A stretch of DNA of 60,089 nucleotides, filler included, from Sluysia triapertura (GCA_046118255.1; 4 parts of 4 records of this genome joined end to end with filler, not necessarily neighbours in it); one strand, 5' to 3'; counted from the first letter of the whole stretch, positions 28,851 to 59,169 are shown. Program-made: numbers and translations. Notes: generated by a model not told the origin, from the sequence alone.

Positions 28851-30630
28851 TGTGGTGGCCAACCCAATAATTTGAAAATTTATAACGTAATTTAACATCA
28901 AAATCATATTCAACATTGAAAACCATTAAACACACACTTAGAAATTAATTTTACACATTTTAAATTTAGTCCAACATATCGCACATTACGTAACTTCCTA
29001 ATTATTTTCCATCAAAGCCTTTTTTTCATATTTTATCTCTTCAGATGCACCAAAACCATTTTCATACCTTAAAACATTTTTTAATTGTCAATCTGTCAAC
29101 ATCTAAATCATAATTATATTCAAAACCGTTACTTTACAATACAAAGTTCACTTCAAACATTCTTTATTTACAAAGTTATAACATCAAAATCACTTCTACA
29201 TTCAAAAACATCATTACACATTAAATTTTATTCAACACATTTTCAAGTCACAACCTTCCAACATCCAAAGTTTTCTTTCATTTAAAATCGTTTTAAATTC
29301 ATGTTTCATTTCAGTTAAGAATAATAAGTATTAAGCGAAAAATATTATTGTTTAGAAACAGAAGAACTAAAAGAAAGATCATGTTTTTATGATTTTGAAA
29401 GAATTTATGTTTTCGTTATTTTATTTTATCTAACTTTATTAATTATTACTATTATTATTTGAATCATTTTTATTGTTATTATTTAGTCTCATTATCATTA
29501 ACTTTAACAGTAAACACATCCTAGTAACTGACAGTGGTTGACAGTCAATTAAACAAAACTATGAAAATTGTATGGTATGCCACAATCTTGTTATTACTAT
29601 TTCTGTGCTTTCATTGGTTGTCCAACCAGAACAACCAATGGTGGTTGCTCAGTGAACAGTGTAAGAATAAATCAGCACACACTGATATTACATCGAGACC
29701 TGTGATTGTGCATACAGGAATTTTGAGTGTGAGAAAGAACATAAAAATTTAATTTGATATTGAGATAAAATTTTTTCATAAATAACATTGACTAAAAGAT
29801 AAAAAAGAAATTAATAATTTTCATTCATTTTATTTTGACAGCGTTTCGGAATATTAATATTAACATAGTTATACTATTGGGGAAGGTGAAAAAGAAGTAC
29901 TAAATATCTTCTGTTTTGAAGGTCTTTCTAAGTTGTGTGATATTTTGCCAACATTTACTCAATCATTAAAAGGATTAGCTGACGTAGAACGTATTGAAAT
30001 ATCTACTGATGCATTGAATGAATTTTTCTCAACAGATAGCGATAATATAGTATTTTGTCCAAACTGGTACAGAGTTGATATGTCCAAAAAGAAAGATCAA
30101 ATTTTCGAGATCATGTGCTGAACAAATTTCACTAAAAATATTTATATGCCATTTACGTTCAACGAAATAGTTTTGATATTACTAGAAGAAGTGAAACATT
30201 AGAAAACGAGCTGAGTTTATGCAAAAATCCTTTATTGTATTTGTCACACAATTATGTAAATAGAATTAAAATGTTTAAGTTTCAAATAAACAAGCTAATA
30301 AAATATAAATGAATCTAAGTTTAGAAATGTGGTATACCTATATTTAGAGTGTTAATTGATGATTCGACAATTAATATTACTAAACATAATATGTCTGATA
30401 GATCGTGTAAAGCATTTATGAATGGTATCATTTCCTTAAATGATAAAGATGACGAATTCTTCATCAAAATTATATCTGAACAAAACATTAGTTTCAAAAA
30501 CATGGCTTCATCAACTTATATCTGCCAATTAAATTTAATGTTTACGTTGAACAAATCCTTTATAATAAAGCACGAATTGATAAAGATATATCTGGAGATG
30601 AAACAAAACTATTGTAAAGCAATTTAATAT
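28851..30630 (+). mobile_element. Cassette family copy B with decayed unknown cargo
   Basis: Starts TGTGGTGGCCAACC; G-poor arm to ~29300; AGAAAGATCATG at 29372-29383; CATTGGTTGT...ACAACCAATG inverted repeat at 29612-29640; broken ORFs at 29840-30627. Confidence 0.75.
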
Positions 30631-30653
30631 GAAGCTTATCAATCTATTAGTAG

Positions 30654-30759
30654 TGTGGTGGCCAACTTACTAACCTTAATAAATTTTACAAAAATCCTAC
30701 CTAAAACATATCAAAATCTCATAAATCTTCAAAATATACACTACATATTTTTCAATCGA
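30654..30759 (+). mobile_element. Cassette family 5' stub (second TGTGGTGGCCAAC plus start of arm) directly after copy B
   Basis: Exact 13-nt terminal motif followed by C/A-rich sequence; interrupted by the TTAA MITE. Confidence 0.6.
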
Positions 30760-30763
30760 TTAA

Positions 30764-30997
30764 CCCTTTCAGCCCCGGGACCGCCATATGGTGTCAATGG
30801 CGATTTTTTCTCTTACACAACTGCTACGCAAGATCCTACGAAAGTATTTTTCAATAGATATTTATGTTTGAACTTTGACCCATATATTTTTACTTTACGT
30901 CAATATTTACAATTTTCATACATTTTTCCTAAATCATCATCTATAAAGACAATAAATCACCATATATCTAAAGGAAAAAAATTCAGGGCTGAAAGGG
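30764..30997. mobile_element. piggyBac-like MITE
   Basis: TIR CCCTTTCAGCCC ... GGGCTGAAAGGG with TTAA on both sides (30760-63, 30998-31001). Confidence 0.85.
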
Positions 30998-36900: not shown

Positions 36901-37689
36901 CAGATGACCAACAGTAATGGTATTACGATTTGTAGAAGTTGTTCTTTCCGTAAATAAGTTTTTTTGGAAAGGGATAGGTTGATTTGATTAAAGTTATTGT
37001 ATATAATATGTTTATTATATTATGAGTGGTATATACTGTGATGATGGCATCGTTTAAAGTGGTACCTTGTGTTTGTTATGTAATGAAATCATCGGTAAAG
37101 ATTTGAGCCACCACAAGAATAATCAATGAATAATCTTTTAATTTGTGTTTTGGATTCCATTGATTAAATTTTAAATTACTAATACTACTTAAAACGTGAC
37201 CTTTGTAATTAATACTTCGTAAAAGTTGACGAAATAATTTTTTTGCCCTTATTTATATACGCACAAATTTTTCTATCCATAAACATTAACAAATAAATAA
37301 TAAAATCCTTTATTTTATTTATGAGCGCACTCTGTACGAACTATTGGAATAATACGACCTCTACATAACAGCTCTGTCAGCATTTCAGATTTAGCTAAAT
37401 CATACCAATTAATAACGTTTCTTTTTTGAATTTCGAATTCTAATTGTTGTTTATGATAATAAATCAAATTACCTGACGTGCATATACCGGTATAATCTTC
37501 ACAATGTTTATGATTACAAAGAGAAGCAGTAAAATATTCTTTTAAACATTACACAATCTTACTTTTATCAATTTTCTTTATTTTAACTGATTCAGTCTTT
37601 TTAATATCGTCTAAATAAATCCGTTTACTCCTGTATAATTTCAACATCAAGCTGAAATTGGAAATATAAATTGATAATTGTTGGACAAA

Positions 37690-37900
37690 AACTTCCTCTA
37701 AAATAATTTTAAAATTTCAGAAATTGCCTTAAATTGTCAAACAAAGGCTGCATCTTTTATTTATATTAAAACAATTGATATTTCTGTTTTTTAGTAATCG
37801 AGATAGCTTTGTTTTTTCAACATATTATAAGCCTCAGCAATTTTTGTTTCACTTCTACAAACTTCTACATGAATATATAAAAGCATCTGTGCACCTTAGT
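37690..37900 (-). mobile_element. Possible Penelope-like GIY-YIG C-terminal relic
   Basis: NINKRCSLCLT resembles the KRCxLCLxEK motif at the end of Penelope-like ORFs. Confidence 0.35.
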
Positions 37901-38199
37901 ATAACTGATGATGACCTTCAACTTATTTAATAACTTGTTCACAAATAGCAATTGCTGCTTATTGTTTAAAAGCAAAATTTGAAAGATTTGTAACTCCGTT
38001 AAACGAATTTCTAGCAATTCGTCCCCTTTGCTATATATATANNNNNNNNNNNNNNNNNNNNNNNNNNNNNNNNNNNNNNNNNNNNTTAATTAATTAANNN
38101 NNNNNNNNNNNNNNNNNNNNNNNNNNNNNNNNNNNNNNNNNTGTTTAATAATCTGTGTACATGTGAAGTGTTTTTATGTGATGAAGTGTGATGAATTTT

Positions 38200-41100
38200 G
38201 TGTGATTTCCCTACAAAGATCAAAATAGAATTCATTATTATTATTAATGAGTCTTCACCAAACAAAACCAAAATGACAAAATTAATAATAGCGTTTACAA
38301 TAATAACAAGGATATTAGAATCTCTAAAATAAAACTGCCAGGGGTGACGCAACAGACTAAAAAAATATCAATATCCAGGAAGTTTAAAATATTAATGTTG
38401 GATAACTATTATATCTTAAAAACAAACTGTAAAGTGAGTTTCTTACTAAGTGATAATTAATATCAAAAAATTAATTTAATATTTCAAAATAAAATAGCAA
38501 GTGATATTAAAATCCCTTAAAAATAACAACAAATTTAATATTTTAAAATAAAATGCCTAAGGGAGTCTTTCACTAAATGATATTAAAATCCCTTTAAAAA
38601 TAATAACAAATTTAATATTTTAAGATAAAATTAATTATGGTGTCAGATGTTAATTTGTATGTTTTGTTATTTTGAATTGGACAGCGTAATTTATCAGAGA
38701 TGGCCGTAAGTTTCGTGTTCATAAATATGAGGGGGGCATATTTGTTATTTATTATAAAATCAGTAGTTAGTACACATGAACTTTTATTGTCTGCTAGAAG
38801 TAAAAGATTTAGTCTTTTAAATATTCTCGCATGAGTAATAATAATATTGGATCCTAATCTTAAGTTAAGTATTTTGTAGATATGTTCGTTATTAAATCTT
38901 TTGATATCAATTATTGTATTAAATTTTTTACTTAAAACTCTGAATCTAACATTGTAGAAATTCAAGATATTGTCATTAAGGTTTTCAACTTTAGCAAAAT
39001 TTAAAATAATTTTATAAAAACAACAAGGATAATTATTTATTGAATTGTTAAATGTAAAAATTGAATTAAAGAATATTTTTGGTTTTGTAAATTTTTCCGT
39101 ACATATCGCCTCATTCTGGATCGTGCTTTTGCTAACTTCTAAATTGCAAAGATTATAATAAGCAATATATAAATATATGTTATCACAAATCTGATAATAA
39201 AAGTTCAGTGTAAAAATATTACCTCTTTCAATGTCGAGATGATTAACTTTGTATATGACTGGATTGAGTGGTGCAATTGGCTGTATTAGCTCGATACAGT
39301 CGTAGGAATCAAACGCATCAACCTCTCTATGTACAACAGGCTGTTTGGCAATCAATTCACCACTATACAATGATACTATAACAAGTGTATCGTCTCTAAG
39401 TGTAGATAGTCGTTCTTTCATTATTCGAGGATCATTGAATAGCATTTCATTGAATACATAGTCTTTGTGAGCACGAATTTGTCTTTTAATAAATTGTTGG
39501 GAAGTTAATAACTTTACGTCAAATGTATCGTCTCTACATGTACGAAATTGTCTTTTGATCATTCGCTGAATATCTAATAATGTAACACTAAAAGTTGTAA
39601 ATGAATCGTTACACTTCTTAACCATTACTGATTCATAGTTGTCGTTGTACTTCATAACTCTTGTCTCTAATTTGTTACGATGGAGTAACGTTAAATCAAT
39701 TAGCGTGATAAAGTCAACCAACTTGATAATTTTCATCATTCGAGAATTATTTAATAACACTTCATTGCCTATATAATCTTTATGAGGACGAATTTGTCTT
39801 TTAGTAATTTGTTGGAAAGTTAATAACTTTGCGTCAAATATTTCATCTCCACATGTACAAAATTGTCTTTTGATGACTCGCTGAATATCTAATAATATAA
39901 CACTGAAGGTTGTAAATGAATCATTACACTTCTTAATCATTACTGATTCATGATTGTCGTCGTACTTCATAACTCTTGCCTCTAATTTGTCACGACGGAA
40001 TAATGTTAAATCAATTAGCATAAAAAAATGAACAATCTTGATAATCTTTGATATTTTATAAACAGCTTTGTGCTTTAAGTATCTTATAGCTGAATAGTAA
40101 TCGAACCGTGATAAATAGAACAACGTAATACAATCATGAAACTTGATAAATTTTAATATTTCATGTTTAGTTTTGTACTTTATATTATCAAACGATGATG
40201 AATTGAATAGCATAATGGGATGATCCAACTGAATAAAATTTAACATTTGATGTTTAGTTTTGTAATTAATATATCAAACAATGATGAATTGAATAATATG
40301 ATTGTATCGTCAAACTTTATAATTCACAATGTTTTTGAATTTTTACTACTTGTAATTGTTGATCTCTATCGAAACTATGTGTAGATTCACTAAAAATTGT
40401 AAGGTAGTTAAATTGTGAGTGTTGATTTTTCTGTTTGCTATTTTTAGGTTCACTGTACTCTTGTTTACCCAATCAGAGCGTTGATATTTGCTTTACTTGA
40501 TTTTGTGATTATGCTCTGATTGGGTGGTGGTAATTAGTGCAAAATCAATCCACTGACCATCATCATCAGTAGTGATTTAAAATTAACAATGTACAAAGTG
40601 TCACTACTGATGATGGTGACAACGAGATTTTAATTTATTTGTAAGGTTTAATAGAAATAAAAATAATGGTAATAATGATAATAAAGTACATATTAATGAT
40701 TATAAAATAATAATAACAATAATAAAAGTGATAATAATAATTATAAACTAATAAATATAAAAATACATAAATGTCTTTAAGAAAGAAGTAGACACAATCT
40801 TTTCTTATATCTTTTTTTTACTTCTAAATATTTGAAAACGGAATAAAATGAACGAGACAATTGTACTGTGAAGGAGCAACAACAGTTAAATGAAAGATGT
40901 ATTGTTTGTGGTTGTTTCTTCACAGTATGATTACGAACTTCTTCAGAGCTATTTGAGATTTATTTGAAAATTGTGTTATGGTTATAGTTAAGTGAAATGG
41001 AAAGTGTTAAACGTAATTTATTGAAATTAATTGAAATTTTGTGAATTGAAAACAAGGTCTATGCATTAGATTTAAAATGTTTATTAAAAGGTTTAAGTTT

Positions 41101-41545
41101 AAAATGCTTATTAAAAAGGTTGAAGTTAATTTGATTTTAAATGATGATTTAGAAATAAATTTATATATGTTATAATGTTGTTACAGATGATTGAGGATGA
41201 TGAGTATGGTTGTGTGAAGTAGATTTAGGTCGTTGTTGTTGATTATAGTTTTAGGTGGGGTGGTCTATGTTTCTGAAATGGTGATTAGCATTATTTGAGT
41301 GTTGTTATGTTTGTGATTTATGAGGTTTATGTTGTGATTATGACTTATTTAGTGAAGTATTTAGTGAGTAGATGTTATGAATTGTTTTGAAATAAAAAAA
41401 TGGTTGAGATATAAGTTGGTCTGTTGGTGTTAGTGATGATGTGTTTGTAGAATAAGATTATGACTATTGAAAAAAATATATTTTGATAAAATTAAATTTG
41501 TAATTGTTGAGTTAAGATTTTAGGTGATTGGTGTTGACCATTACA
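38200..41545 (-). mobile_element. Cassette family copy C carrying an intact 544-aa ORF
   Basis: Minus-strand start TGTAATGGTCAAC at 41545; skewed arm at 41000-41530; AGAAAAGATTGTG variant at 40793-40805; two perfect inverted repeats at 40468-40524 and 40561-40615. The 3' end runs towards a gap. Confidence 0.7.
38612..40246 (-). CDS. 544-aa intronless protein of unknown function with a 105-aa internal tandem duplication; C-terminus possibly OB-fold-like
   Basis: ATG start; 1635 nt without a stop in very AT-rich DNA; 315-bp in-frame duplication (~39417-39731 and ~39732-40046). Confidence 0.75.
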   Translation of the reverse strand: MLNFIQLDHPIMLFNSSSFDNIKYKTKHEILKFIKFHDCITLFYLSRFDYYSAIRYLKHKAVYKISKIIKIVHFFMLIDLTLFRRDKLEARVMKYDDNHESVMIKKCNDSFTTFSVILLDIQRVIKRQFCTCGDEIFDAKLLTFQQITKRQIRPHKDYIGNEVLLNNSRMMKIIKLVDFITLIDLTLLHRNKLETRVMKYNDNYESVMVKKCNDSFTTFSVTLLDIQRMIKRQFRTCRDDTFDVKLLTSQQFIKRQIRAHKDYVFNEMLFNDPRIMKERLSTLRDDTLVIVSLYSGELIAKQPVVHREVDAFDSYDCIELIQPIAPLNPVIYKVNHLDIERGNIFTLNFYYQICDNIYLYIAYYNLCNLEVSKSTIQNEAICTEKFTKPKIFFNSIFTFNNSINNYPCCFYKIILNFAKVENLNDNILNFYNVRFRVLSKKFNTIIDIKRFNNEHIYKILNLRLGSNIIITHARIFKRLNLLLLADNKSSCVLTTDFIINNKYAPLIFMNTKLTAISDKLRCPIQNNKTYKLTSDTIINFILKY

Positions 41546-42059
41546 TACGTAGAATTAAGAATACATATAAACATATACATCCAGTCTTATTTTTCTTATT
41601 ATTCAGTGAGTAAGTCCTGTATCACAGAGAACTTACGATAAGAATAAGACATCTAATTTAAATCAAATATCTATCTTTAATCACACTAATCTCCACAGTA
41701 TGATTCCATTTATAAAAATATCCATAATTTTTATATTTCTGTATTTGTAAAATAGACAAAAGTTCGAATTTTCTTTAATCTGATGAAATATATTAATGTT
41801 TTGAACACTTAGATAATATGAAACATATCGACGTATATATAAATTCCTATGAGTTGCAGCAATCACAAGTGGTAAAAGTATATATCAAATTAATGCTCAC
41901 TAAGATACTATTTAACATTTTCTATTGAAAAATAGTGACATTTGGTCACCGGCTTTTTTCAGAAAAATAAAAATGTTAAAACTTCATTTAAAATGAGTGA
42001 AATATTAAATTTATTTAAAATTATTAAAAATGAAGTGTATATATATTTTGAAATATAAA

Positions 42060-42900
42060 CTTTAATACAAGCACGACATATTTTGACAACACCGCGACAT
42101 ACTTTCCGGCAAGTTTCCTCTGAAATTTGGTTCCATTCGTGCTGAATTCTTTTTTTAGTTGATCAATTGTCCTAGGCTACTTAGCATAAACTGCGTTTAT
42201 TAGAACTCCCCACAGATTTGGTGGGCCATTCGATTGTCCTCAGCGTTCAATCCAACGTCTAGGAAATGTTTCATCTTTTGTGTAGTTCGTAGCTCCATCT
42301 TGTTGAAAATGAAGATCACCGAAACGGAGAAACTCATTAACAATAGGAAACACTTTAGTCTGCAGCATAATAAGAAAAAGTATACCATTAACAGTTCCTT
42401 CAAAGAAGAATGCGTAAATTAGGCCAGTGCTACCGATTCCAGCCCAGATTGTGACTCCAGGAACATTGACTTACGTTTCAATAATACGACCGAGATTCTT
42501 ATTGTATCTGTTAACATGCCCATTCAGTTTGAAGGAAGTTTCATCACTCCATAAAATTCAATCTGGAAGGTCTGGTGATTCTTCACAAAATTATAATAGT
42601 TTATCCGGATCATCTTCATTTAGGGCATGAAGAAGATGAGGTCTGTATGGTTTTAGACCAATGTCATGCAAAATATGGTGGAGTAAGGTTCGAGAAATGC
42701 TTAGCTCTTTCGATTCTTGGCGGATAGATTTTTTAGTAGAATGAACAAATGCAGCTGCGCCACTATATCCCTGTTTTCAGGTGAAGGAACTGTTTCGGCC
42801 GACCTTCTTTAGGAGCATCTGACACTTCCAATTTCGATACAAGATGGAACATTGTCAACTTACTTTCACCTTTCTCCAACATGCTTATAGCTAGTCCTTA
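42060..42900 (-). mobile_element. Tc1/mariner-superfamily transposase relic
   Basis: KKSIRQESKELSISRTLLHHILHDIGLKPYRPHLLHALNEDD, ILWSDETSFKLNGHVNR, VTIWAG, FFFEGTVNG, FQQDGA, FPRRWI, LWG, PRTIDQLKKRI. Contains stops and frameshifts; the third catalytic residue is deleted; TIRs not identified. Confidence 0.88.
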
Positions 42901-44399
42901 CTCAGCAATTCTTAAAAACGAAGATACGTTCGTGTAAATCTAAAGTCATTAGCTTCATTTTTAAGAATGAGGGTCCAGAAGCTCACGCTGAACAAAAATC
43001 AAGTAGTGACATCAGAGCTAAAACAAAAGTCATTCTAAAGACTACTATTGGCAGAAGAAAATGAATAGTAGCGAAGATAACATAAAATGACAAAAGAAGA
43101 AATTACATTTGTCGTTTTTGAAATCTAATTTTTACTTAAGCACACAAAAATGATATTAATAGAAACTAAGTAGACATTAAGTAATAAGTAATAATTCGAA
43201 TAAATAAATTAAAACATTAATTGAAACTAATATATTTCGAAATTTTAATATTCATTTTGTCCGTAGCTTAATGCTATTATCAATGGTATGTGATTCGTAG
43301 TGTACTGTGGCTTTGCTTAAATACAACAAACTTACGATTAATCACTATGTGAAATAAATTAACTGAATAATAATAAGCGAAAAATATAATAACAATGTAA
43401 TAAGAATAAAATTAAAATATTAATTATTATTAGGCTCAGAATCCTAGAGCTTTAATAATATATCAAAATAAATAACTTTTAGCGTCATGGGTATAAAAAT
43501 GTCACGCATTTGTAAGTACAAATGAACAATATAAATAGCGCAATGATTTTCAACGTTTTTCTAAAAAGTAGTTCGAATAAAAAACTAGACACCATATAGA
43601 CAAATATTTATACAATATATAAATATTAATATTAGTATAGAGTTAATATAAATTCAAAATTTAGTAACAAATAATAATCAGTTTTAAATTGAAATTGTAT
43701 AAATAATCATTTTAAAATGAGATTTAATAACGACATGAAATTGAAATTTATAAACATCAAACCTTAAAATCAATAAAATCATTTTAAAATAAGACTTAAT
43801 AAGAATAATATAAAATCAAATTTTGGGAGCATAAAATCCTATCAGAATTTTCTGAAAAACATGATTTAGAATATTATTATATATAATATAAAATCATTAA
43901 ATTAAGATTTAATAGAATCGGTATGGGATTAAAATTTAATAACATTATATTCAATGAAAATTATCTTAAAGATTAAATAGAATAGATAAAAGTTGTGTAA
44001 TCAAAATTTAAAATCATTTTGAGGGAAAATAATTATTCTAAATTTTGATTTAATATTAATTACAAAATTATATATTGTGAAATAATTACGTACAGTGCAA
44101 TAAAGTATTAGAAAATTACTAACTAATAATAATCAAAAATTAATAGTTTAGACCAAAAAAATTAATCACTATGTGAAATAAATTATTAACTAAATAATAA
44201 TAATTAATAAACTATATATTGTGTGAAATAAATTATTTAATTAACAATATCGAACAATATAAAGAATGGAGTAATACGTAAACACGAACGAATAAACCGC
44301 AGAAACTTTGAGATATTTGACTGATTTACCTTTTTTATATATTTATTTGGAATAAATCGTTATAACTTATCAGAGAGTACTTGGGTAAAGATTAAATTG

Positions 44400-44900
44400 A
44401 TTCATCCAAGCTAATTGGAGAAATTCAACTGAATGTTTTGTGATATACTATTCACACTTTCAAATAAAAGTTTCTTTCTATGGTAGAGTAGAATTATTTT
44501 AACTTAAAGTTTAATAAAGTAGAATAAAGTATCTTAAAGCATAATTATACGAAATTGATGGAGACCTAGTCGGACAATAATAAGCGTTTAATTGAATAAT
44601 TAATCGATTATTTAGCACTTCTAACACGCATAACCGGGATGAGTATTTGAATTCATACTTTCAGATAAAGTAAAATTAATATACTGATCTAGGTTATAGG
44701 TATTATTAAAGAAGTTTACATCAACAATAATTTAGCTTTTCGAATCTTGATTTACACTGCCCAAATAAGATTTTATAGATTCAAAACACATTAATATTTT
44801 TTAACTATAAATCACAGAAGTTTTGACGAAACTACTATTAGGGATTAATATACAACACATAAATCTAAAATTTTGGAAATTAATTATTCAAACTTTTGCC
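44400..44900 (+). mobile_element. Gypsy-like protease/RT relic
   Basis: KLIGEIQLNV..SFY, LGIIKEV-like, FSNLDL...QI.ID and FKLLP remnants in pol order; very decayed. Confidence 0.4.
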
Positions 44901-46232
44901 TTAACTCGAAGAAATTTGACGTGAAAAGCTTGGGTACCAATCTACAATAAATAACTTTTGGAAGTAGCAAATAACTTTCAATTCACTTATACAATAAATA
45001 CAGGAGGACAGTGTATACATATTCATCAAACGAAATTGCTATAAAAATATTAATATGGTGGGCAATTTCTGGCTTAAAATTTAAACAATCATTTCAATCA
45101 CATTTTCACATTCATTAACATTTTACATTATTACCTTTTCATAATTCACTAAAACCTTTTCTATATTTTACACTTTCTTAATCCATTAAAACTAATTTCA
45201 TTTCAAAACATTTTAAATTCAGGATCTATTACCATCCAAATCATATTGATATTTAAATCATCAATGTATATTTAAACATCCATTTGAAACATTTGTTCAT
45301 TATCATCTAACATTAAAAATACAATTATATCTTAAACTATTAAATACACATCATTAAACCAATCCAAAATATTCCAATTTTACAATCTTCAATACTCATT
45401 CTTTAACATCTCAAAAAACATCAAATTCACACTTCAAATCATTGTAAACATTTCAATAATATAGAACCAAAAAAACAATTTTATCTCAAGACATATAAAG
45501 TTAAAAGATTTTATTTCAAATATGTTAAGAAGGAATAAAATAAAATTAAAGAAATATCTTGTGGTAAAAGCAAAATATTTATGCATTTTAACTATCATTA
45601 TATTGTCAACCATTTTATTATCATTATTATTTATATCACTAAAAATTTCAATTTAATTTCTGTCAAGTACGACAGATCATTTTTCACAACAATTCATTTA
45701 CCTGTCACCATTTTTAAGTACTTATACATTGAATTTAATAACCACATGGTGACAGGCGCACAGTCAAGATGGTAACGACTATCTCAGGCAGTTATTCGTA
45801 CTACTCCACTTGATTGGACTTCTAATCATTGCTATTTATTCATGTTAACATTGCTGTTATAATTAGACGCCCAATCACATGATATTACACATAACAAAAT
45901 TTATCAAATTAAAAAAGTAGTAACTGAATGATAAAAATAAGGGCATGCACTAATACCGACACATTAAAAAGATACACAAAAATAAAATATTAGTATCTTT
46001 TAATTTTGCAAGCGTTCAATTTAAATCAATAGTAGTACTAGTTTGTCAAAATTCGGATTCTTTAATTTATATATTAAAAAAAGAAAATTAAAAGATGAAT
46101 GAAACGCTACAAACGATATACAACAGTGATATTATACATTCTAGCATCTCCGAAAATCAAAGATGAGTGTGAAATTTCAGTGAATACCTCATCATTACTC
46201 CATCTAAAGTATCTAAGCCAATATATGATATT

Positions 46233-46766
46233 ATGGAACCTCTAATTATAAACCAACATCAAACGTCTATCCTTAAAATATGTCAAAACCCAAAAACTGT
46301 TGATCATGAATCAGCGAAGTGTTTAGCAAAACGTTTGTATGATTGTGATGGTTTCAGAATATCAGACATGGCAATTCATTTATCCAAAAGAAATGATTTT
46401 AATCGGGTTGTTGCAGTTGAATTTTCAAATTTTTTCGATTTTTCAAATTTACGACTTGACAAAGCACTATGTCAGTTTCTGAGCAAATTAACACTAGTTG
46501 GCAAAACGCAAGAACGAGAATGTATTATGAATCACTTTTCAAAACGTTATAAGATTTGTAATCCATCTGTATATAATGGCGAAGACGCTTGTCACCCTTT
46601 AAATACAAATATACACAGTCAAATTTATCCAAAATTATCATGCAAGGATTTTATAAAAGGTTTGAAAGTACTTAATGATGATGAAAATTTTAGATCCGAA
46701 AACCTTCAGGAATTATTTGATTCGATCGAATAAGAACCTATTAAGTCACCTGTTGATGATGAATAT
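46233..46766 (+). pseudogene. PSD: Sec7 domain of the EFA6/PSD Arf6-GEF family, degenerate
   Basis: SAKCLAKRLYDCDGFRISDMAIHLSKRNDFNRVVAVEF..FFDFSNLRLDKALCQFL..LTLVGKTQEREC..HFSKRY..CNP matches the EFA6 Sec7 domain. The TLTCALML segment is deleted, there is a premature TAA at 46731, and no PH domain follows. Confidence 0.9.
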
Positions 46767-47160
46767 GTAAATATTATTAATACCAATAAATCGCATGTTT
46801 TTCAATCGAATAATTTATTTATCTCTTAGCAATCTTAGTACCAGAGTCACAGATCCTCAAAGATCAAATTAAATTCAAGCCGCGAACCTCGAGTCGTAAA
46901 ACATCATTCGTTAACCATAACTTGAGAATCAATCATGTTGATTCAAGATATTTAACTACACATCAATGTGAACAATATAATTTAGATTTATCCATTTCTC
47001 ATTTAGATTCAAATGTCTTTATATTCAGTAATAATTCTACAAGGGCCCGAAGTTCCTCTAAATGCGTATCTAAAAGAATAATTAATATTGAGAATTATGA
47101 TTCCATGGAACCAAATGAAAGGTAATTGATGAGCAAACAAATGATGTTAATTCAAGTGAA

Positions 47161-47574
47161 ATGATAGAACTTTTTGGTATAATAGATGAGATTTCACGGA
47201 AATTAAATGAAGTTGAACTTTTAGCAACTAACTATCAAACTAGAAACATGACATCTAACAAATGGGGTCGTACTGAAGATATTAATTGCACAGCAAGAGT
47301 AACAGAGACAATGGACAATCTTTGGTTAGACTATTATGAAGCCCGAACAATGGAAAAGACTTTATCTGATGTAAATATTAGTGAACAAAATAATAAAGTA
47401 ATTTACTCTTCATATATCCAGAATTTAACTAATTGCGATATTTTTTATTTCAGGGTCATGACAACCAGTGATTTTGCCATTCTATATACAAAATGGGCTA
47501 CGACTTTTATCAAATGTATTTATAACTTAAATCTTAGCATTTTAGTAAATAAATATTTTCCCATGTGTTTTTAA
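47161..47574 (+). pseudogene. Degenerate shared 3' module of the cassette family
   Basis: EDINC..TETMDNLW resembles copy F DNNC...TELTDNFSW; same AAA|GTAATT...TTTCAG intron. Confidence 0.45.
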
Positions 47575-48824
47575 TTCTCTTGAAGTTTTCAAAATTACGA
47601 ATATGTTATAAAATAAAATTGGCATTATCAAAAAAAGATCAACATGATATTTGATATAAACATAAATTTAAATAATAATAATCATATGGTCAACTTTAAT
47701 AATCAATACTTACAATTAATTTACAAAGTTATAGTTTATTTTATACCCTTTAAATTACAACGTCATTTTTCAAATCACTTTTTAAATATAGGTTTAAAAT
47801 CTAAGGCATTAAAAAATTTATATAAGAATCTTATTTTCACTTTCTCATTTTAAAAGAGTTAAAATCTTATAAAATCTAACTATATTTTTGAAATCTCATT
47901 TTAAATAAAGGAATAAAATATATTTAAAGTATTATAATTGCATTAAGACAGTTATAAAGGTGTTGGAATTATATTTGTTGAACGAGTAAAAATTAAACGA
48001 TTTCTTGTAAGATCGTTATGTTGCAAAATTCTGTGGACAAACTATTCTGTAAGTCTTGGATTACAGGTAAACTCATTAAATTAATTTCTATTTGTAATTT
48101 CTGTTTAAAAATGTATAGATATTTTAGTGGATTTTAAACCGTGATTAAAACGGTGAATCATACATTTAACAAACTAATTTATAACAGATAATGAAAGTTT
48201 GCCCTAAAAACTGTTTAGTTCTGTCGAATCTAAAAGAACTATCTTTTATGATGTAATTATTGCGCATAAAATGTTGTTATTCGTTTTCTATATTAAACTA
48301 CTATTGTTACTTAAAAACGATGCGTGCAACATTTTTACTGAGCAAAAATGTTATATCTATTCATAAGTGTTGAAGATTATTGTGCATTATTTAATTTTAT
48401 GGTGAAAAATAATTCGCATTTAACACGCAATTATATTATTTTGATATTCGTAGTCCTGTGCATTTTGGTATACCAATTTTATCTAGGTTTTATTGGTTTT
48501 TTTAATTATTTTGTTAATAATATTATCTTTATGTTATCATTTAATAATTATGTTAATTTAAGGCTTACAATCATAAACACATTTCATCACAAACCAACAC
48601 AAACAAAGTACTAAACAGCTTATTGCTGTTTTTATACTAAACTTTTGCAAAATAGTCTTATCTGGAGGAGTTCACCTAACAGAGACGACTTATATCTGGA
48701 CGAAGGCGGTCTATTAGGATTTTAAAGTTCTTAGAATACTAGGTGAGTTCAATAGTCGAAGCGTTGCACTACGCTTAATAAAGATTAATTCTACTAGTTT
48801 AAAAACTTATAAATTCAATAAATT

Positions 48825-48945
48825 AAACTAGCCAGATTATGGTCTAGTTTCTAAATTAATTAAGCTAGCCGGTTATGGTCTAGCGTACAGGTTAAAATAT
48901 TTTAATGAAATTAAACGTTAAGCTAGCCTTATTAAGGTCTAGCAA
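48825..48945 (+). repeat. Three spaced CTAGCC-N6-7-GGTCTAG mini-hairpins (partial fourth copy near 49135)
   Basis: ctagccagattatggtctag, ctagccggttatggtctag, ctagccttattaaggtctag. Confidence 0.7.
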
Positions 48946-49379
48946 ATTAATCAATATTTTAGTTTAAATTTATATAACAAAGGATTAACACGAAAAGTTA
49001 TTACGTAAACGATCGATAATATATAAACTTTAGTGCCACAAAGAATAATATAATAATATTTTTAATTTATGGAGTTACTTAAGAAAAGGAGTTTTCTTAG
49101 TAACTATATGAAATTTAAAGAATTAAATTAAACAAGCCTTATTAAGGTCTCTTTATATAAATTGATGATTTTACGTCTTTTTTATTCTTCCTTATATGGT
49201 AAGAATACAAATCTTAAAGTCAAAACAAATTACTTGTAATCATGGAATTGCGAAATGGCCAAATAAAATATCGTTCCAATTTTGATTAAACTTCCTCAAA
49301 ATGTTTGTGTGTAATTCCATTATGAAACAACTATTTATATCCAAATTTCTTCAGCCATATTGCAATATTTGTTTATTTT

Positions 49380-50393
49380 TTACTTTAAATAAACAAATGA
49401 AATAATATTTACTTTTTTACTTTCATCAAATAATATTTTTATTGTGGTTTTAACCTTATAATTCGGATATTTAGAGTTATCGTTATTCCTGCATTTACAA
49501 CCAGCTTTGTTTGCACAATATTTGAAACTACTAAAAAATTGGTGCTTAAGGCACCGGAAAATCTCATTATAAACAATAAAATACCAATGAAGATAACATG
49601 ACAAATTTATATTAAAAGCACACAAAAAAGGGTTAACGCTTGCTGACACATTAAAAATTGTATAAAACTTACATTGTCTATCAACGGTGAGGATATAAGA
49701 TGTGGTTCCCAAACTTCTATTCTCTCCAGCGTTTTGACTAACAAAAGTCACCTCACTAGATTCAAACACGATAAGAACACGCACGTAAATGAGGATCCTA
49801 TATAAAACGCAAAATAAAAATCAAAACATAAAAATTTGAACAAGATCTCGAATTATTAGTTTTTAAATGTGCCAACTTATTCGTAGTACTGAGCGAACGA
49901 TATCCCTGTCCCAGTCGGTTATCCATGGCTAGGTTATCTACGTAACTAAAATGAATAGGCTCATAGATTTGCTTAAGCTTTAAATTTAAATAATATGAGC
50001 ATCCTTTTGGACCAGGGGCATCGTCGTCCAGTACTAAGTGTTGGACTACCTTTAACTTGAAAAAGGAATCAAAAATATCATAAAAATATAGTGATTTGAA
50101 TTTAGCATGAGAAAAATCGAATACTTCATCATTCTGCACGCTTTTTGCAATCTCTGATCCATCATAAATAGATTTCCATGTTTCGTGTTTAAAATTTGAA
50201 TTTGAATTATCTTCGATCACTCCAATATGGTTGGCTACAGTTAGAGTAGATTCCCAAACATGGTTTATATGTTCCTTGGTTGAGACTGCACCGATCTTTA
50301 AAATTCCTTTGGCTATCCTATGCGCATCGGCTTTGTCTTCGCTAATCAGGGCTGCACCTATTATTGATAATTTGCCCATGTCAAATAACTTAC
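49380..50393 (-). pseudogene. Unidentified intron-containing coding sequence (193-aa and 134-aa ORFs)
   Basis: Locally raised GC, long open frames, a candidate 36-nt GT-AG intron at 50393-50358, and further splice-like sites near 49798 and 49672. No confident product. Confidence 0.45.
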
Positions 50394-51947
50394 TGTCTTT
50401 TGAAATTTGAAATCATTTTGTATTTTATAAATTATAAATTATTTTGTAAATTTTAAATATAATATTTATAAAATCAAATGCACAAAATGTATAATAAATA
50501 AAAAAGCGTAAATTGTTCTTACATTACTCTATACATACAAAACATAAATATAATCGTAATAATTATTATAATTATCATAATTGTAGAAGCAATAGTAGTA
50601 ATTATTGTTATTGTAATATATAGTTGTCATGATATGTTAATTGTTATTTTTATTAGTATGCTATTATTATTGTATCTGTGTACCAATGCAATTAATCAAT
50701 AAATGTATCATAACTATTTAACTATCTCATTTTTTGTATGCATTATTTGACATTATTTTCATTTATTCCCTATAATGATCACTCTAAGAATTGTTTCGGT
50801 AATATTAACGCATTGTCTGATTCGGTATTGTTCTACAAATATGAAGTTCCAACAAACAAGTTTACTGATAAAATATTATTTAATAAAAATATAATATTTA
50901 GCAATAATATTTAATTGAGTATTATTATATATTTGGTAACATATTAAATGTTATTAATATTATATTACTTAAAATAAAAATGTAATTAAATGTAATTGAA
51001 ACTGTAATAAGTGAAATTTTTTAAAATAGTTTAAAATATAATAAAAAATCAATTATAATAAACAAGCCTTGTAAATACCAAGACTCTATTGGAAAACTTC
51101 AAATTTAAATACAGTTAATTGATGTTTTTTTTAAAGATTATTACTATTATCGCTATCATCGTTGCTACAATATTTGTTTTTAGGTTTAAAAAATGTAAAT
51201 TCAATTATATTGTTCCAATTTTTCCTCGGACGCCAATTTGTAGAGAACTTGATGTATTTTATAATTCTAATATCAGACTACCTCTATTTATAGTAAAAAA
51301 TTTTATTTATAGTTAATTTTTTAAATAATATTTGGCTATTATTATGTGAATAAATTTTCGTATAGTTATTTATTCGTTAATATTATTAATTCAGTTAATG
51401 CATTCAGTTTACTTAATTATTTTTCAGTATTATTAGTATATACTAGTTCATTCAATATAAATAATACAAAATTCATAACATACTTCATTATATGATATTC
51501 ATAACATATCATTCATTCACAGTTTCTTCACAAATTAATTAATTATTTACTTTAAATACAATTTATATCTTATTTTATTATATAACTTTACAAAATTAGT
51601 AATATTTTAATTTTATACTACAATTATTTGAGTTGTAAATATTACCGATAATAATCCGTTTAAATCGAATCGGTTTATGATTAATCTCGCTACCAAAGTT
51701 CTCATTAGACTCTGATAAAAAGTTGGAAGTGCTAATTTTAATAGTTGAAATAAGTTACTCATACCTATATTTCGGAAATAAAACACTCAACACTAAAAGG
51801 TATATTCGATATCAGTAAAAGTGTTTACAACCAAACGTAATGACTGCAATAATTTGAATAATTTGACTTACACTTAGATAATAATAGGTTCGCCTGTTGC
51901 GAGCGGTTGACACTCTTATAGGTATTTTAAAGTGACTTAACTTATCA

Positions 51948-52532
51948 TATGGTGGGCCAATCGACATATTATTAATTTTTTAGCTTGCAACCTCACCAAA
52001 ATTACTGTTTACATAAATATATGTAGATAAATGTACTTAACCTTATTAAACATAAAACACAGTACATTAACAATTCTGCACTCAAACACCTCGTACATCT
52101 TACTGAAATACTTTTCAAATTTGATTCTGATTTGTAACCATATTTACAACAATTAAATGTATTCTATTCAGCAAGAACATTCAAAGAACAAATAAAAGTA
52201 AAGAACAGGCTATCCATATTGCAAACCAAACTATATAAAAGTCACCTCATAAAGTTACACAGCAATTAAAAGAATTAAAAAGTAAATGGAATATAAAGAA
52301 TTAAAATTACTTTAGATTTTAGAATTGAACGAAGCAAAGAAAGTGAAGAAATAAGATCTTAGTTCAAATTTATTTAGATTTTTTATTTAAAACTTTATGT
52401 AGGATTTTGTGACAATTTATAAAGGAACGGAGATCGGAATAGTGTGAAGAGGCAATTTAAAGTAGAACTAAATATTAAATAGGTTTTTCTTTATGTTAGT
52501 TTGTGCATATTTTTATGCATTTATGTTATTTT
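51948..52532 (+). mobile_element. Cassette family copy E (arm only, runs into gap)
   Basis: TATGGTGGGCCAAT start, C/A-rich arm, purine-rich block with an AATAAGATCTTAG variant near 52350. Confidence 0.45.
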
Positions 52533-54339
52533 NNNNNNNNNNNNNNNNNNNNNNNNNNNNNNNNNNNNNNNNNNNNNNNNNNNNNNNNNNNNNNNNNNNN
52601 NNNNNNNNNNNNNNNNNNNNNNNNNNNNNNNNNNNNNNNNNNNNNNNNNNNNNNNNNNNNNNNNNNNNNNNNNNNNNNNNNNNNNNNNNNNNNNNNNNNN
52701 NNNNNNNNNNNNNNNNNNNNNNNNNNNNNNNNNNNNNNNNNNNNNNNNNNNNNNNNNNNNNNNNNNNNNNNNNNNNNNNNNNNNNNNNNNNNNNNNNNNN
52801 NNNNNNNNNNNNNNNNAATGGCATCCAGGCCTTATGAATAAACTAATAATTTGAGTAAAATCAAAAATTAAAAAATTAAAAAAACATTTAAAAAGATAAA
52901 AATTAGAGATGCCAAAATATCAACCATTATAATGCGATGAATTTTATCATAAAATTTCCATTATAGAAATTTGAGCTTAAAAGATAAATACTTTGAAATG
53001 TTATGTTTATGCTCTAACTTTTATAAAATTAAGCAATTAGAAAATCTAAATATTATGAATTTTCAAAAAGATTATTTTGATTATATTGTATCATTTGCAG
53101 TACCGTTTAATACTAAATTGTCGAGTATCATTTATCGTCATTTCTTTCTGAAATCACATTTAATTCAAAGAGAATTTGTTAGAAGTCACTATAAAAATGC
53201 AATTGTGACAATGAAATGGATCATAACCAGCTATTTCATATGCCATTTAATCCCAACGTTTTCTGTTCATGAAAACTATCACAACTATCTGTGAGAACAA
53301 AATCCAAGAATTATTATTAATCCTTTAAACATTCTAGTCTATGAAAATAAATGCAAAGAAAAAACAGTAAAATTTTTATTTCAAGTATATGATAAGAGTA
53401 AATATTTATATATTTTTTTATATATGTTAAATTTTTATAATAGTCTTTAGATTATTTTTACAGGGTAGCTAATATCCTTATTCCCATAAGTGTTAATGAA
53501 TATTTGCAATGCGTTTTTGATAATTGCATAATTTTATTTACTGTAGACTTTAAATCTCTTTATGAAATTGTTTATGAAAATAACATAAACTTCATAGTAC
53601 ATTCTAAGACTAATATTTTTGAAGCTAATGATATCACAAAAGTTAAGTCTATAAAAATAATAATACAAATTTATAAACTCTCAAAAAACTACAATTATTA
53701 TTGTATTGTACACAAAATAGTAAAGGGTTTAAAAGATATTTGTACTTATTATTTTATTTAGTATCTTTATCTTTAAGATATCTTTACGTTAAAGTTTCAT
53801 CAGATTTGGTTCTACAATTAGTAATACATATAAATTCAAATCTCTTTGCCTTTCGTATTTCATATTATAAATTCATTAGCTCCGCTAACATTCTAAATAT
53901 CGACTTTCTCTATTTCTAGTATTTGTCGATCAGTTTCATCAAATTCATTAATTTTAATCTCAAATGCGTAAATGATTTCTTATTAATGATCCAATAATTG
54001 AATACAATCAACATAACCTTTTACTATATATTACACGCGAGTTTTACATGATTCTTACGTAAACACATTCACGAATTTCATTCCACGACATTCCCTTCCG
54101 ATTTATAAATTGTGGTGATATGAAATAGTTTATAATATTTAAAAAATTTAATTTTATTATATTACCAAGAGAATATAATTTTACATATTGCGGTAACGAG
54201 AATTCTTTAGCATTTTTATTTAAATTCAATAGAAATCTAGTAACTTTAGACAACGAAAATATTAACAAAATTTTTATTATGATTAACTAAACAATAAACA
54301 TTTAATTTTAAAGTTCTTATTTTGATTATGTCATCCCGA

Positions 54340-55841
54340 GCTCGTTATAGATTCACTTTGTAAAAGATTCTAAAGAAAATAAAATAATGTAAATAGGTAT
54401 TAATGTTACTAATAAAGTTATGAATCAGGTTAAATTTAACAATTACTTTTGAGTCATGATGATTGTTGCTATCGAATGGCCTTGTGTCTAATGATGACAT
54501 CAGTAGTCTTATTCGTTGAATATGTTCCGTTAAGTTCGAAGTCCAAGAAAAGTTATCCGTTAGTTCGGTTGCATTGTGTGCGTATATACAATTATTGTCC
54601 GTCTGGAGTTGCTGCATACATGCACCAACCAGATCTGAAGTGTCGTGACTCATCATCCAGATCTGATTTTGTCTTTCGAGCCTCATTAGTGGATGTATCG
54701 ACTTGAAAAAAGCTCTCTTTCAAAGGCAAAATTTTTATGAGAATATGCCGCTGACTGGAATCTCTGTATGCGTCGAAATTCTAAGTTTGCGAATTGTTTC
54801 CGGTTTACTAAAGATTTAAATAATTCTAATTGACATTTACATAATCGGTTATGGTGAATTGGATTTTTTATTTCCAACATAACGAAAATATCTTGTAGAT
54901 TCTTTAACGTGACATTCAAATTATGTCACGTTATCAATAATAAACTAAAAAGAGTGACACTCTGAGCATCGTTTTTCTGTACGTCTACATAACTCAAAAA
55001 TTTTTTTAAATAGTTTCAAAATCATTTTTTACAAAATAACTATAACGGCATACATTTCTTTAAACTTTCGCTTAAATATATCACACGCATATCTACTTTT
55101 CATAACTTTAATTACATCTGACTAATTAAGTTTACCACAAATAAATTTTGGACCATCGGCATTTTGTTTGACATGGGATAAAATTTCTTTAACATGTGAA
55201 TCAGATTGTTTTACATAATGTCTTTGGATTCGATTAATTCTGTTTCCCACAGAACGACTAATGCTATTTACTAAATCTTTGATTTCACCAAAATAATCAT
55301 AGTAAAAAATATGTTCATCTAAAAATAAAAGATTATTAATTCGGCATTTGCTTTCAATTCTTTTGTTAGTTTAACTTGTACAATGAGGCCATCAGTTAGA
55401 ACATCTAATCGTAGAGTAGTCATTTCAAGACTTTCTTTATCATTAATTCTTGGGGTTGTCGTACTGTTTAATTCAACATTTATTAATTCTGAACGAGCTT
55501 TTAATCTAAAATTCATATCTTGTTTGCTGTTAATTGCTATTCAATGTTCTTAACATAAAATTGACGGTAAGCTACTGATTGAGAAAAAAGAATAATTTCT
55601 AAAATGAATTTTTATTATTTTTTAGTACTAATTGAGAAATGAATTTTTATTGGCTGCTCAACCAGAGTAATAAAAATAATGAACAGAGATACTCTGGTTT
55701 GACAACCAATAATAGCACTAATTATTTTTCACATTGACAGGACAACAACATGGAAACCAACAGTGTCGCCATTGATAGTGGTAATTATTAGTTAGTAAAA
55801 TTAGTAAATTAAAATTTAAATGATAATAATAATAATAACAA

Positions 55842-55908
<67 letters not shown>

Positions 55909-56573
55909 AATCGCATAAACTCTTTAAAAATTGCATGATCTTTCTTTATTTCTTTCTTGTTCTCAACATATTTGAAGTTCGTAATTTAGTTGATGACCTT
56001 TTTGATTACTATGTTTTAAATTGATTCTATAATGTGATTTTACTATTTTTCGATGATCTACAAGATTGAGTGTTGAGACATTATGGACTTGAAATGTTTT
56101 GGATTAGTTTTAAATGTATATTTGATGGTTTTGAATAAGGTAAAGTTTGAATATTAGAAGATTATGATTTGAAAATGTATTGAAAAGAGAGTGGTTTAGT
56201 GGATCTGAGAAGATAAATTATAGTCTAGATTTTGGTACATTCTAAAAAGGTTATTGTGCGATGTTGGTATTGAACTATGTGTGAAAATATTTTTAATGAG
56301 TTTTTAAAATGTAGGTTGATAGTTTAAGATGTAAATTGTAGTTCTAATGTTGTGAGATTATGGGTTAAAATGTCCAAAATGAAATTTAAATGTGTATTAA
56401 TGATGTAAATATTGGATATAAGTGTGGTTTTGATGTAAGATTGTGAATTTAAAATGTTTTGAAATGTAAAAAGGTTTTAATATGTCTGAGAAAGTGAGAT
56501 GTAAGATGTAAGAAAATGTGATATTTTGTATGAATTATTAGTTCAAATTCCAAGTGAAAGGTTGGCCACCACA
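54340..56573 (-). mobile_element. Cassette family copy F with decayed cargo and CCCH module
   Basis: Minus-strand TGTGGTGGCCAACC at 56573; arm motif at 56319-56351; AGAAAGATCATG at 55934-55945; 22-bp inverted repeat at 55648-55711; intron at 54446-54370. Confidence 0.78.
54345..55516 (-). pseudogene. Fragmented ORFs ending in a frameshifted CCCH finger (RHFRSGWCMYAATPDG / DNNCIYAHNATEL)
   Basis: Two adjacent frames reconstruct a finger collinear with copy A, followed by H..RI..L..S.D as in copy A. Confidence 0.55.
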
Positions 56574-56766: not shown

Positions 56767-59106
56767 TAAATTATACATAATTTTTTAGTAGGCACTTTAA
56801 ATCTATTGTGTGTTGCCTTTTTATTTTACATCTCAAGCAACATTTATTTATGAAACATTCATAACTAACATGATACAGTTGTTTTTAGTATTACATTATT
56901 CGTTATTCGTCATCAAAAGTCAGATTAGTTATAAAAAGGAAAAAGTTCTATTTGGAAAATATCTTGTCAGTGTAAAATTTTAACAGTTTTATTACCGAAA
57001 CAATGTTTCCCTCGTTTCTAATAAATTTCAAAAATACAACAAATGAACTTTATTCAAGGAAACATTTTATGTAGTGATATTTGATTATATAATTTCTAAA
57101 TAATCAAAATATGTATATTAAGTCTAAGGGATTTCTTCATTCTTTATGATAAATAATACTCGAATTTACAATTCTTTTTATTACAATGATTGATAATTTT
57201 ATCCAAGTTTATATATAAATAATATTTATTTGTTTATTTTAATTCTCCAATTTTTATTTTGTACAGTTTTTCACTCGTTTTTATTTTGCATAATTTTCTG
57301 AGTTACATAAGTAAAAATATAAATATAAATACTTGAGGCAAATTCTAGTCTAATTTAACATAAAAATAAACAAATTTCACCTTAACATATTAGCGCCAAA
57401 ATAAATATGGCTGTATATTAAATTAAAACAAAATTATTTTAATTATTGTTAAATCAAAACACGTTTGGTTTTAATAAAATAACTTACACCATTTCAAAAA
57501 TAATACATAAAAATCTATTAATTTTTTTCACTTTACTTAACATTTTTACTTCAATAATGATTAATCTTATTACTTTTTTTAATATTCATTATTATATTCT
57601 ATTTAAGTGATAATTTTTTATGATCAAACTGTTTGTTGAAAAAGAAAATCAGGTAAATGAAACCTGACAAAATATAAAGAAAAGAAAATGACAAAAATCA
57701 TCTGTGTTATAAACATCATGCTTAATTAAATTATACTTAATTCATGATATTTTGTTAAAATTTATACATTTATATGCAAAAATATGATTTTATTTAATTT
57801 CTATTTATTTTGATTTCTAAAATATTATACAAATGATTTTATAAGTTAAGTATTGCAAAACTTAAAAACGCTATTAATTCATTACTGGCTGTTGACTTAG
57901 TAATACGTCATTTTTGTCTGAAATCCAGTAGCCGCTGACGTAGCAGTACGATTTTTGATAGAATAACTTTGTTTGTGTAGCCATCAAACAATCGATTAAG
58001 AATTTTTAGCAGCCAGTTATGAGTTAAATGTTTCTTAATAGGTTTAAAAAAATTTTAAAACCGTTTAGTTGTTTTAAAAACATTCAATACAACTCAATTT
58101 AAATCATTTACAATTTTAAAAACATTGTACTTATTTCAACTTTTTATTTTACATCTTCAAAACCTTTATTATCAGGTTATACTCTTCATATTTTGTAATA
58201 AAACGTATAAATTAACTTCCAGTCAGTTATTACTTCTAATAGTCAGTATCTTCTATTAATGATAGATTTCAAAACTTTTAATGGTTCTTTAATGCTACCA
58301 TAAAATTATTATGCAATATCTATTTTATTTTATTCAATTTTAATAATTAATTAGATTTTATAGTAACTTTAATAAATTAATTTAAAAAATATTAATATCT
58401 ACTATAAAGTACTTCAAAATCATTTATTATAATATTTCTAAATTAGAATGAACTTTGACTTTACTTTAAATGCTTCGTTAAATAATATTTAAATATAGTT
58501 TCAGTTGAATCACAAATCACACAGTTAATTTTACAAATAAAACAAGATCTTAACTCTATCATCATAATTCCATTTAGTTATCGTGGAAATGGGATCTTCC
58601 GGATTTACTTTATTAATAAATTATTTTTATTAAGGGTGTTTTAACTTTCGAAACATTGAAACATTAAAATAAAATAATGAAAGTAATTTACTTTTAAAAT
58701 TATAAATACAATTTAACGGTCCAAAACAGGTTTTAATTTTAACTTATTTTATTTTGATTTTTTTGTCTACCTTGAATCTATTTTTAGTTGTACACTTAAT
58801 TCGTCTTTTGTTATTAATAAAATTACCAATATTAATACTTGTGTTTGTAATTGATTGCAAACCGGCGAAACTTTTCATTCATTTAACATATACTTGACTT
58901 AAGACCCTTCATTTAAGAATTGACATATTAAAAGCAATTAATTATCTCGTTTAATCAGTATTTCTACATATGCGAATAAAATAAATATACATAAGCTAAG
59001 TCACGCAAAATAAACTGAAGGAATAGAAATCAACATATAAACTCTACGTTATGATTTGTCAAGTTTTTGTTACAAGTACACCCACTTTACGTTGTAAGTC
59101 GTTCAT

Positions 59107-59169
59107 TGTAACCGGACCCTGCTAAAAATTATTTTGCTGTAGGTTAAGAGTTAAGGAAACCACAGCATT
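59107..59169 (+). mobile_element. Second copy of the TGTAACCG terminal repeat
   Basis: tgtaaccggaccctgctaaaaa...gctgtaggttaagagttaaggaaaccacagcat closely matches 2505-2566. Confidence 0.7.

Follow-up and report, generated by a model that had tools for sequence, protein, structure and literature searches.

The 60,089 nucleotides of Sluysia triapertura DNA analyzed here (GCA_046118255.1; filler included, hereafter the window) contain five modules of 0.8-1.1 kb that end in hairpins, and the cargo that could be identified consists of broken pieces of unrelated host genes lying directly behind the hairpins, on the same strand as the module. We believe that the module is very probably mobile and that capture probably took place at the level of RNA; that the hairpin is a structure the element needs, with a presumed function, is an evenly balanced call. 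Our preferred reading, held tentatively, is that an old, non-autonomous element has the module as its cis part and takes up spliced mRNA when a reverse transcriptase switches templates, with the hairpins as a predicted junction signal in the RNA. The window joins four contigs (1-11418, 11519-23036, 23137-38041, and 38142-60089) by N-TTAATTAATTAA-N linkers and has a G+C content of about 25%.

Layout and copies of the module

The five modules, lettered A, B, C, D, and F, share an order of parts. A TRTGGTGG-type start is followed by 450-700 C/A-rich bases (C ~0.2, G ~0.05); then come a AAAGAAAGATCATG-like motif, a tract of ATT, and hairpins 1 and 2. Module D (45054-45877, + strand) has all of these, with its start motif at 45054-45066 and a AAAGAAATATCTTG motif at 45548. 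Module C occupies 40467-41545 (-), and module F 55647-56573 (-). Module B (28851-29640, +) ends in a short hairpin at 29612-29640, and module A (3560-4123, +) lacks a start and has a decayed hairpin 2. Homology that goes beyond shared composition links A, B, D, and F (local z of 4.8-17; 5.7-9.0 for the heads of B, D, and F). C has the same layout with a weak sequence link (z of 6.7 to B and 3.2-3.4 to F and A; 0.6-2.6 for the head).

The module and its cargo have many paralogues. We used a sequencing run, X1, that contains the window letter for letter (0 differences in records 2, 6, and 7, at a depth of 16-22) and is therefore probably the window's own source, not independent support. X1 contigs were aligned to 44600-48500 at 80% likeness. 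Summed depth does not equal copy number, and the listings cover 8 pieces, 40 differences, and 6 loose ends from totals of 1481, 732, and 601, respectively. There were 1403 contigs on this region, 780 of them less than 90% alike. Single sites were covered by 30-34 distinct contigs in the C/A-rich head and by 21-33 in the core of the Sec7 cargo of D (described below). Summed depth was 17 at 44862-44992 and rose to 1136-2915 in the head (44993-45385). The two hairpins had depths of 330 and 125, the Sec7 core 650-1430, and the DNA as far as 47743 250-440; from 48137 depth was 22-24. Depth is thus that of single-copy DNA directly left of the D start and again from 48137, and the step at the start, the constant end of the module, is resolved to one 130-bp bin. 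At the other end, a 529-nt X1 paralogue (record 3) aligns to 45582-45877 and departs at the last base of D hairpin 2.

Two other observations concern the surroundings of D. Single X1 contigs join 45996 to 47384 and 45643 to 47662; these are module copies without Sec7 cargo and may be an empty ancestor or internal deletions. A separate multi-copy repeat (44600-44860; depth 508-1286) lies to the left of D, with single-copy DNA in between.

Start motifs also occur apart from the modules. Stub B2 (30654-30759, +) is a start motif with a short C/A-rich stretch, and similar stubs begin at 51948 (+) and 37115 (-). D2 (47685-48136, +) has a weak start motif and a diverged, partial direct repeat of the module (z of 4.5 for 47800-48160); it is not a long terminal repeat (LTR) partner of D. 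Profile searches with stubs B2, G, H, D2, and J found no homology to the module heads, the likeness being one of motif and composition only. The G/T-rich strand had no long frame of mitochondrial type under translation tables 1, 5, or 9. On that strand the start motif reads ...CCACCA in six of the eight starts (28851, 30654, 45054, 51948, 37115, and 56573 among them). This resembles a tRNA-type 3' end, and the F cargo comes from a CCA-adding enzyme, which may be coincidence. A possible sixth, diverged module lies at 6905-7000, where a C/A-rich stretch is followed by an imperfect hairpin with CCAAT (6909-6957) and by a perfect one of 6 bp (6976-6991).

Gene pieces behind the modules

Three unrelated cargo genes were found behind the modules in one sense. 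Behind A is an N-terminal piece of WASH complex subunit 4 (4314-4610, +), followed by a CCCH zinc-finger piece within 5113-5727 (+), with E-values of 6e-11 and 2e-5, respectively. Behind D is a mid-gene piece of PSD/EFA6 with the Sec7 domain (46284-46763, +), corresponding to amino acids 655-822 of a 1134-aa homologue; its best PSD match was from a nemertean (52%). Behind F is a piece of TRNT1, the CCA-adding enzyme (55209-55474, -; E of 0.0018, and 0.17, collinear, in a second search), in which chain residues 80-123 and then 129-171 abut across a frameshift. Drf_FH3 had been a candidate for the F cargo (E of 0.026) and was dropped in favor of TRNT1.

The Sec7 piece of D is damaged. It has a 7-aa deletion, one stop, and Lys at the position of the catalytic Glu (46503). 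The top structure match, which we take to be an engineered dead mutant, likewise has Lys at this position. Most of the paralogous depth in X1 (846/902) has a Gln codon where D has its stop at 46731. Among the 40 of 732 differences listed, eight are specific to D within the Sec7 frame, and five of these eight are non-synonymous or nonsense. Two anonymous open frames follow (46814-47574, +), and the cargo is multi-copy to about 47740.

The remaining cargo has no assigned parent gene. C is followed by an intact 544-aa orphan frame (38615-40246, -) with a 315-bp internal duplication; protein searches found no relative and gave only a weak F-box lead (score of 0.81; Atlas leads all below 0.9). Behind B are anonymous broken frames, from after 29640 to 30627 (+). 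There was no protein backbone shared among 13 cargo or candidate regions and no A-run longer than 7 behind any cargo, and a search of viral contigs yielded nothing related to the Sec7 cargo.

An RNA-level origin of the D Sec7 piece is likely, not proven, judged against the PSD genes of other animals. The comparison used 80 PSD metagenome loci, many of them redundant, with 70 scored matches. At the first PSD intron position, 43 matches broke with AG, 6 were continuous, and 21 were unscored. At the second, 42 broke with GT, 9 were continuous, 12 broke without GT by this crude test, and 7 were unscored. A third break appeared as split alignments in about 11 loci. The D piece is continuous over all three positions. 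The module itself was not found in the 80 loci by blastn.

Structure and sequence of the hairpins

Inverted repeats are far more frequent in the window than in shuffled sequence. All of the arms reported by a first-pass annotation were found in place by a direct check. In C, hairpin 1 (40556-40617, -) has a perfect 15-bp core (40561-40575/40601-40615; 19 bp in the + strand fold), and hairpin 2 (40467-40525, -) has perfect arms (40468-40479/40513-40524) that extend to 13 bp. D hairpin 1 (45701-45756, +) has perfect 11-bp arms (45701-45711/45746-45756), and D hairpin 2 (45811-45877, +) has arms that match at 14/16 (45811-45826/45862-45877), or at 17/22 Watson-Crick pairs over its full arms. The arms of F hairpin 2 (55647-55712, -) match at 18/22 (55648-55669/55690-55711), with two additional G-U pairs, and those in B are perfect (29612-29621/29631-29640). 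The decayed hairpin 2 of A (inner arm 4048-4069, outer arm 4102-4123, +) has 10 Watson-Crick pairs of 22. Counting perfect arms of at least 10 bp with at least 4 G/C and loops of 3-80, there were 9 inverted repeats in the window, whereas local shuffles (n = 60) averaged 0.48 and never exceeded 3. Six of the nine fell inside the hairpin zones, which make up 1.7% of the window and were set after the hairpins had been seen. Four of the five zones folded well below shuffles (z of -5.6 for C, -5.1 for F, and -3.2 for A and D), the exception being B (-0.8). The main hairpins form DNA folds of -8 to -15 kcal/mol, and five of six are 56-67 nt long. Searches of the window with Rfam at an E-value of 1 and with ARAGORN gave no match.

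The hairpins are less uniform at their tips, and more conserved in sequence, than first described. CCAAT tips are found in four of the six listed repeats; those at C 40561 and D 45701 have TGTCAC/GTGACA tips instead. The order is CCAAT...ATTGG in C and ATTGG...CCAAT in D, F, and B, and because of this opposite polarity the C hairpin is not the same structure as the others. The proposal that structure is conserved and sequence is not fails at the inner CCAAT arm, where ATTGG-WTGT-CMARYCAG is common to A, B, and F and a variant occurs in D. This arm is a short palindrome of two CCAAT-like halves 4 bases apart, reaching 18 nt in A and D. Inner 22-nt arms match between copies at 13-18 positions (F-B 18, A-B 17, A-D 16); the two arms within a copy match at 17 in D, 18 in F, and 10 in A. 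The first-pass statement that arms match each other far better than copies do is correct for D versus F (17-18 versus 13) and does not hold as a general rule. The stems do not appear to be terminal inverted repeats (TIRs) of unrelated MITEs (miniature inverted-repeat transposable elements), an explanation raised at the outset. No duplication of 2-10 bp flanked any of the six hairpins, and their arms share homology and a fixed position.

The arms of D, F, and A fall in a single 22-pair register in a structure-blind MAFFT alignment. In this register, which was derived from the same sequences on which it was scored, 77% of cells were paired, versus 27-44% for slid registers. In six pairs both partners had changed, and in five of these D and F differ by a Watson-Crick swap. 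Because there are only three copies, these swaps are not significant, and point compensation is indistinguishable from re-copying of an arm. Pairing is not kept at every locus, as A has decayed. The claim that pairing is actively maintained is upheld in part. The register indicates pairing that was kept or re-made between lineages, although the covariation fails a shuffle control (below). Searched with a covariance model built from D, F, and A, the window gave no copies other than those three and their reverse strands, with B and C reached only at an E-value of about 1. The same model had one match in the 80 PSD loci (L055, 1174-1259, -; E of 0.001, 33 bits), probably a generic hairpin.

How the module may spread, and what it may mean

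In the reading we favor, an autonomous partner would supply the reverse transcriptase. The enzyme would copy a piece of host mRNA and then switch to the module RNA at its structured 3' end. A series of such jumps would produce chimeric cargo, and the chimera would then spread as a unit. Pairing would be kept, by selection or by re-copying of arms, only in actively moving lineages, and would decay once a copy is dead, as in A. A promoter for the cargo would be a probable second role of the paired CCAAT and TGACA tips.

Several results weigh against this reading. There was no near-identical terminal partner, direct or inverted (the best matches of at least 40 bp were 68-79% alike for A, B, D, and F, with none for C), and a classical LTR vector is therefore excluded for these copies unless they are truncated. 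The window contains no autonomous partner or reverse transcriptase. Stubs retain the start end only and depth peaks at the start, the opposite of ordinary 5' truncation of retrocopies, and a promoter located at the module's 3' end would be unable to copy the module. The better-folding strand is opposite to the module for hairpins C1, C2, D1, D2, and B2 and is the module strand for the hairpins of F and A. The covariation of D, F, and A failed its shuffle control (42-108/500), as it did with five rows. The cargo boundary rests on one paralogue. Depth over the hairpins and leader (79-330) is below that over the Sec7 core, so that other or more diverged modules may precede many of the Sec7 copies. 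Lastly, 6-9 of the 70 PSD matches were continuous, some on long genomic contigs, so that introns may have been lost in this organism's own parent gene.

The cargo resembles that of known retrocopy vectors, and the ends do not. According to the excerpted text of PMC5131818, LTR-mediated retrocopies of animals, formed by template switching, and Bs1 of maize also have partial, intronless, multi-gene chimeric cargo behind an element promoter and are able to spread again. The cargo here is likewise partial, intronless, and from several genes, intron loss having been tested for Sec7 only and against other animals' genes. In those elements, however, both LTRs flank the cargo, whereas here the junction is marked by paired hairpins and no near-identical partner is present in the contig. 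In a check for a primer-binding site, three of the eight start motifs opened with TGG two bases after a TCA, but single-copy DNA lies upstream of D. Genes framed by Penelope pLTRs in Adineta vaga (PMC3846280, excerpt) and Terminons (PMC6431247, excerpt) have terminal repeats with palindromes of 18-38 bp and a putative promoter that mobilize host genes in trans. In these, host introns are kept and there are paired pLTRs and target duplications, none of which were found here. Hammerhead motifs are reported for Penelope-like repeats; in the modules, Rfam gave none, and a core scan gave one candidate, at 40946 in C (4-base stem filter only), that is absent from A, B, D, and F.

The most serious alternative, still an unlikely one in our view, is a non-autonomous rolling-circle element (Helitron or Helentron/HINE). 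The hairpins would then be terminal signals in single-stranded DNA, and the cargo, including earlier retrocopies, would be taken up by end bypass. The modules have no LTRs, one constant end, and stubs of variable length. On the G/T-rich strand, the order of terminal inverted repeat, microsatellite, and repetitive core is that of DINE-1, also a very abundant non-coding element without LTRs (PMC4067079, excerpt). The differences from DINE-1 and HINE as excerpted there are the lack, here, of an 11-15 bp sub-terminal inverted repeat pair or T-run ends, the position of the cargo outside the hairpin end and its apparently spliced state, and loops (20-35 nt in C, D, and F) that are mostly longer than the 3-22 bp described. 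By inspection, no sub-terminal pair reached 11 bp, the outer arm matching the start region at 9/10 in C and at 4-5 bases in B, D, and F. The 18-nt palindrome of the inner arm in A and D is in keeping with a Helitron. So may be a TC located 3 bases ahead of the start motif at four of the eight starts and following an A at two of them, where the exact end is known to a 130-bp bin. There is no CTRR about 11 bases behind the palindrome at the module end; instead, CTAT follows at 3 bases in A and D. Helibat-type Helitrons of bats similarly carry promoters and captured, retroposed mRNA pieces at many copies (PMC4224331, excerpt). Here no TC...CTRR ends were seen, and every identified cargo lacks visible introns, so that three cargos would each require a prior retrocopy.

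Less probable is that the hairpins have no structural job and are symmetric pairs of NF-Y and TALE-homeodomain sites, the promoter that contains them being mobile or duplicated and driving families of retrogenes, with the arms homogenized by template switching during local replication. We take the CCAAT tips all to fit the NF-Y consensus and the CCAAT and TGACA motifs to belong to these factors. Both polarities occur and no folding strand is consistent, as expected for such a promoter. ATG lies 218-221 bases behind the hairpin in C and D, each with a TATA-like box, the 46731 stop is Gln in most of the paralogous depth, and the C frame is intact. However, factor binding needs 5-10 bp, versus copy-specific matches of 13-22 bp, and the hairpin length is nearly constant. 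The D and F cargo begin mid-gene, and most of the listed D-specific Sec7 changes alter or end the protein. A symmetric NF-Y promoter, one of the first-pass suggestions, thus fits the tips and leaves the long copy-specific match unexplained.

A bolder form of the reading we favor is doubtful. It would make the module a retro-vector that captures genes and lacks both LTRs and TIRs. Its 830-nt RNA would be structured, with the 3' hairpin as the fixed point at which reverse transcriptase lands after leaving broken host mRNAs.

We consider it improbable that the start motif is the short TIR of a cut-and-paste element (a hAT-like Pack-TIR) with the modules and stubs as its left and right ends. The inward-facing starts of B (28851, +) and H (37115, -) share 9 bases, and their 8-bp flanks match at 7/8. 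G and F match at 5/6 at an offset of 2, and a similar motif beginning CAG occurs at 13512. However, the flanks are AAT-rich and many combinations of pair, length, and offset were tried, B and H have no further homology, and no inverted motif was found at the right boundary of D. Pack-TIRs and Pack-MULEs are non-autonomous ends that carry host pieces, as here, but their capture is at the DNA level between matching TIRs (PMC8277862, excerpt), which was not seen. In how it works, the module resembles gene-capturing non-autonomous elements, which are reviewed in PMC13317346 (excerpt). The copies seen nevertheless failed a defining test of each of four kinds, namely LTR vectors, Helitrons, Helentrons, and Penelope elements, and we therefore file the module in none of these.

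A lineage-specific microRNA cluster is very improbable. Stems of about 19-22 bp, total lengths of 56-67 nt, and a conserved AUUGG at the 5' end of one arm would suit it. Against this, Rfam gave no match, the D and F arms differ at 9/22, the arm is self-complementary, the motif position is not shared by the C hairpin, and the context is a cargo-bearing repeat. We give even less weight to origins of extrachromosomal circles or single-stranded replicons, or to the cruciform or packaging origin first suggested: strand asymmetry is strong and the DNA folds are stable, but the modules lie in 11-22 kb contigs among other transposon remains, without a replication gene or a viral relative of the Sec7 cargo, and D's own contigs are at flank depth in X1 (16.6 and 16.6 versus 17-22), a comparison that cannot exclude rare circles.

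The window contains a host gene and several other repeats. The V-ATPase subunit a gene (13618-19130; exons from 13618, 16987, and 18940) has GT-AG introns of about 3.1 kb and 34 nt. It is because this gene is split by introns that we regard the host as an AT-rich, intron-keeping eukaryote of animal type. The 34-nt intron is near 17089, and ATT tracts adjoin the splice acceptors. A piggyBac-type MITE (30760-31001), with TTAA on both sides and a 17-bp terminal match starting CCCTTTCAGCCC, is inside stub B2. Between C and D, the region 42000-42980 (-) is what we take, by eye from its motifs, to be a decayed Tc1/mariner-like transposase; a 76-aa piece of it had no Pfam match. Two abutting orphan frames (204 and 146 aa) are located behind an ATT-rich stretch at 49383-50412 (-), and the frame at 49801-50379 had no relatives in our searches. 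A separate repeat of about 400 bp, 74% alike and inverted, is found at 24621-24885, beside a C/A-rich stub, and at 38237-38644, behind the C orphan frame. Small dispersed repeats unrelated to the module pair 2498-2566 with 59100-59168, 10949-11002 with 27910-27963, and 27845-27945 with 41602-41700.

Known gene-capture vectors each have diagnostic ends, and the copies described here have no partner LTR, long TIR, hammerhead, or Helitron terminus. Our literature search, with Repbase, supplements, and most subscription journals outside it, found no description of this module family and no paper linking Sec7 with Helitron. If the module resolves as a Helentron or a promoter-bearing repeat, it would be a well-stocked but ordinary family. 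If it is the retro-vector without LTRs or TIRs described above, five modules in 60 kb would make it a major repeat and an exon-shuffling machine acting genome-wide, one that has amplified an intronless ARF6-GEF (guanine nucleotide exchange factor) Sec7 domain, possibly catalytically dead and dominant-negative. If apparently spliced, chimeric cargo without such ends proves to be the rule throughout the genome, the module would add to the ways in which invertebrates gain retrogenes and would offer a natural test of the upkeep of a cis-acting hairpin whose sequence turns over.

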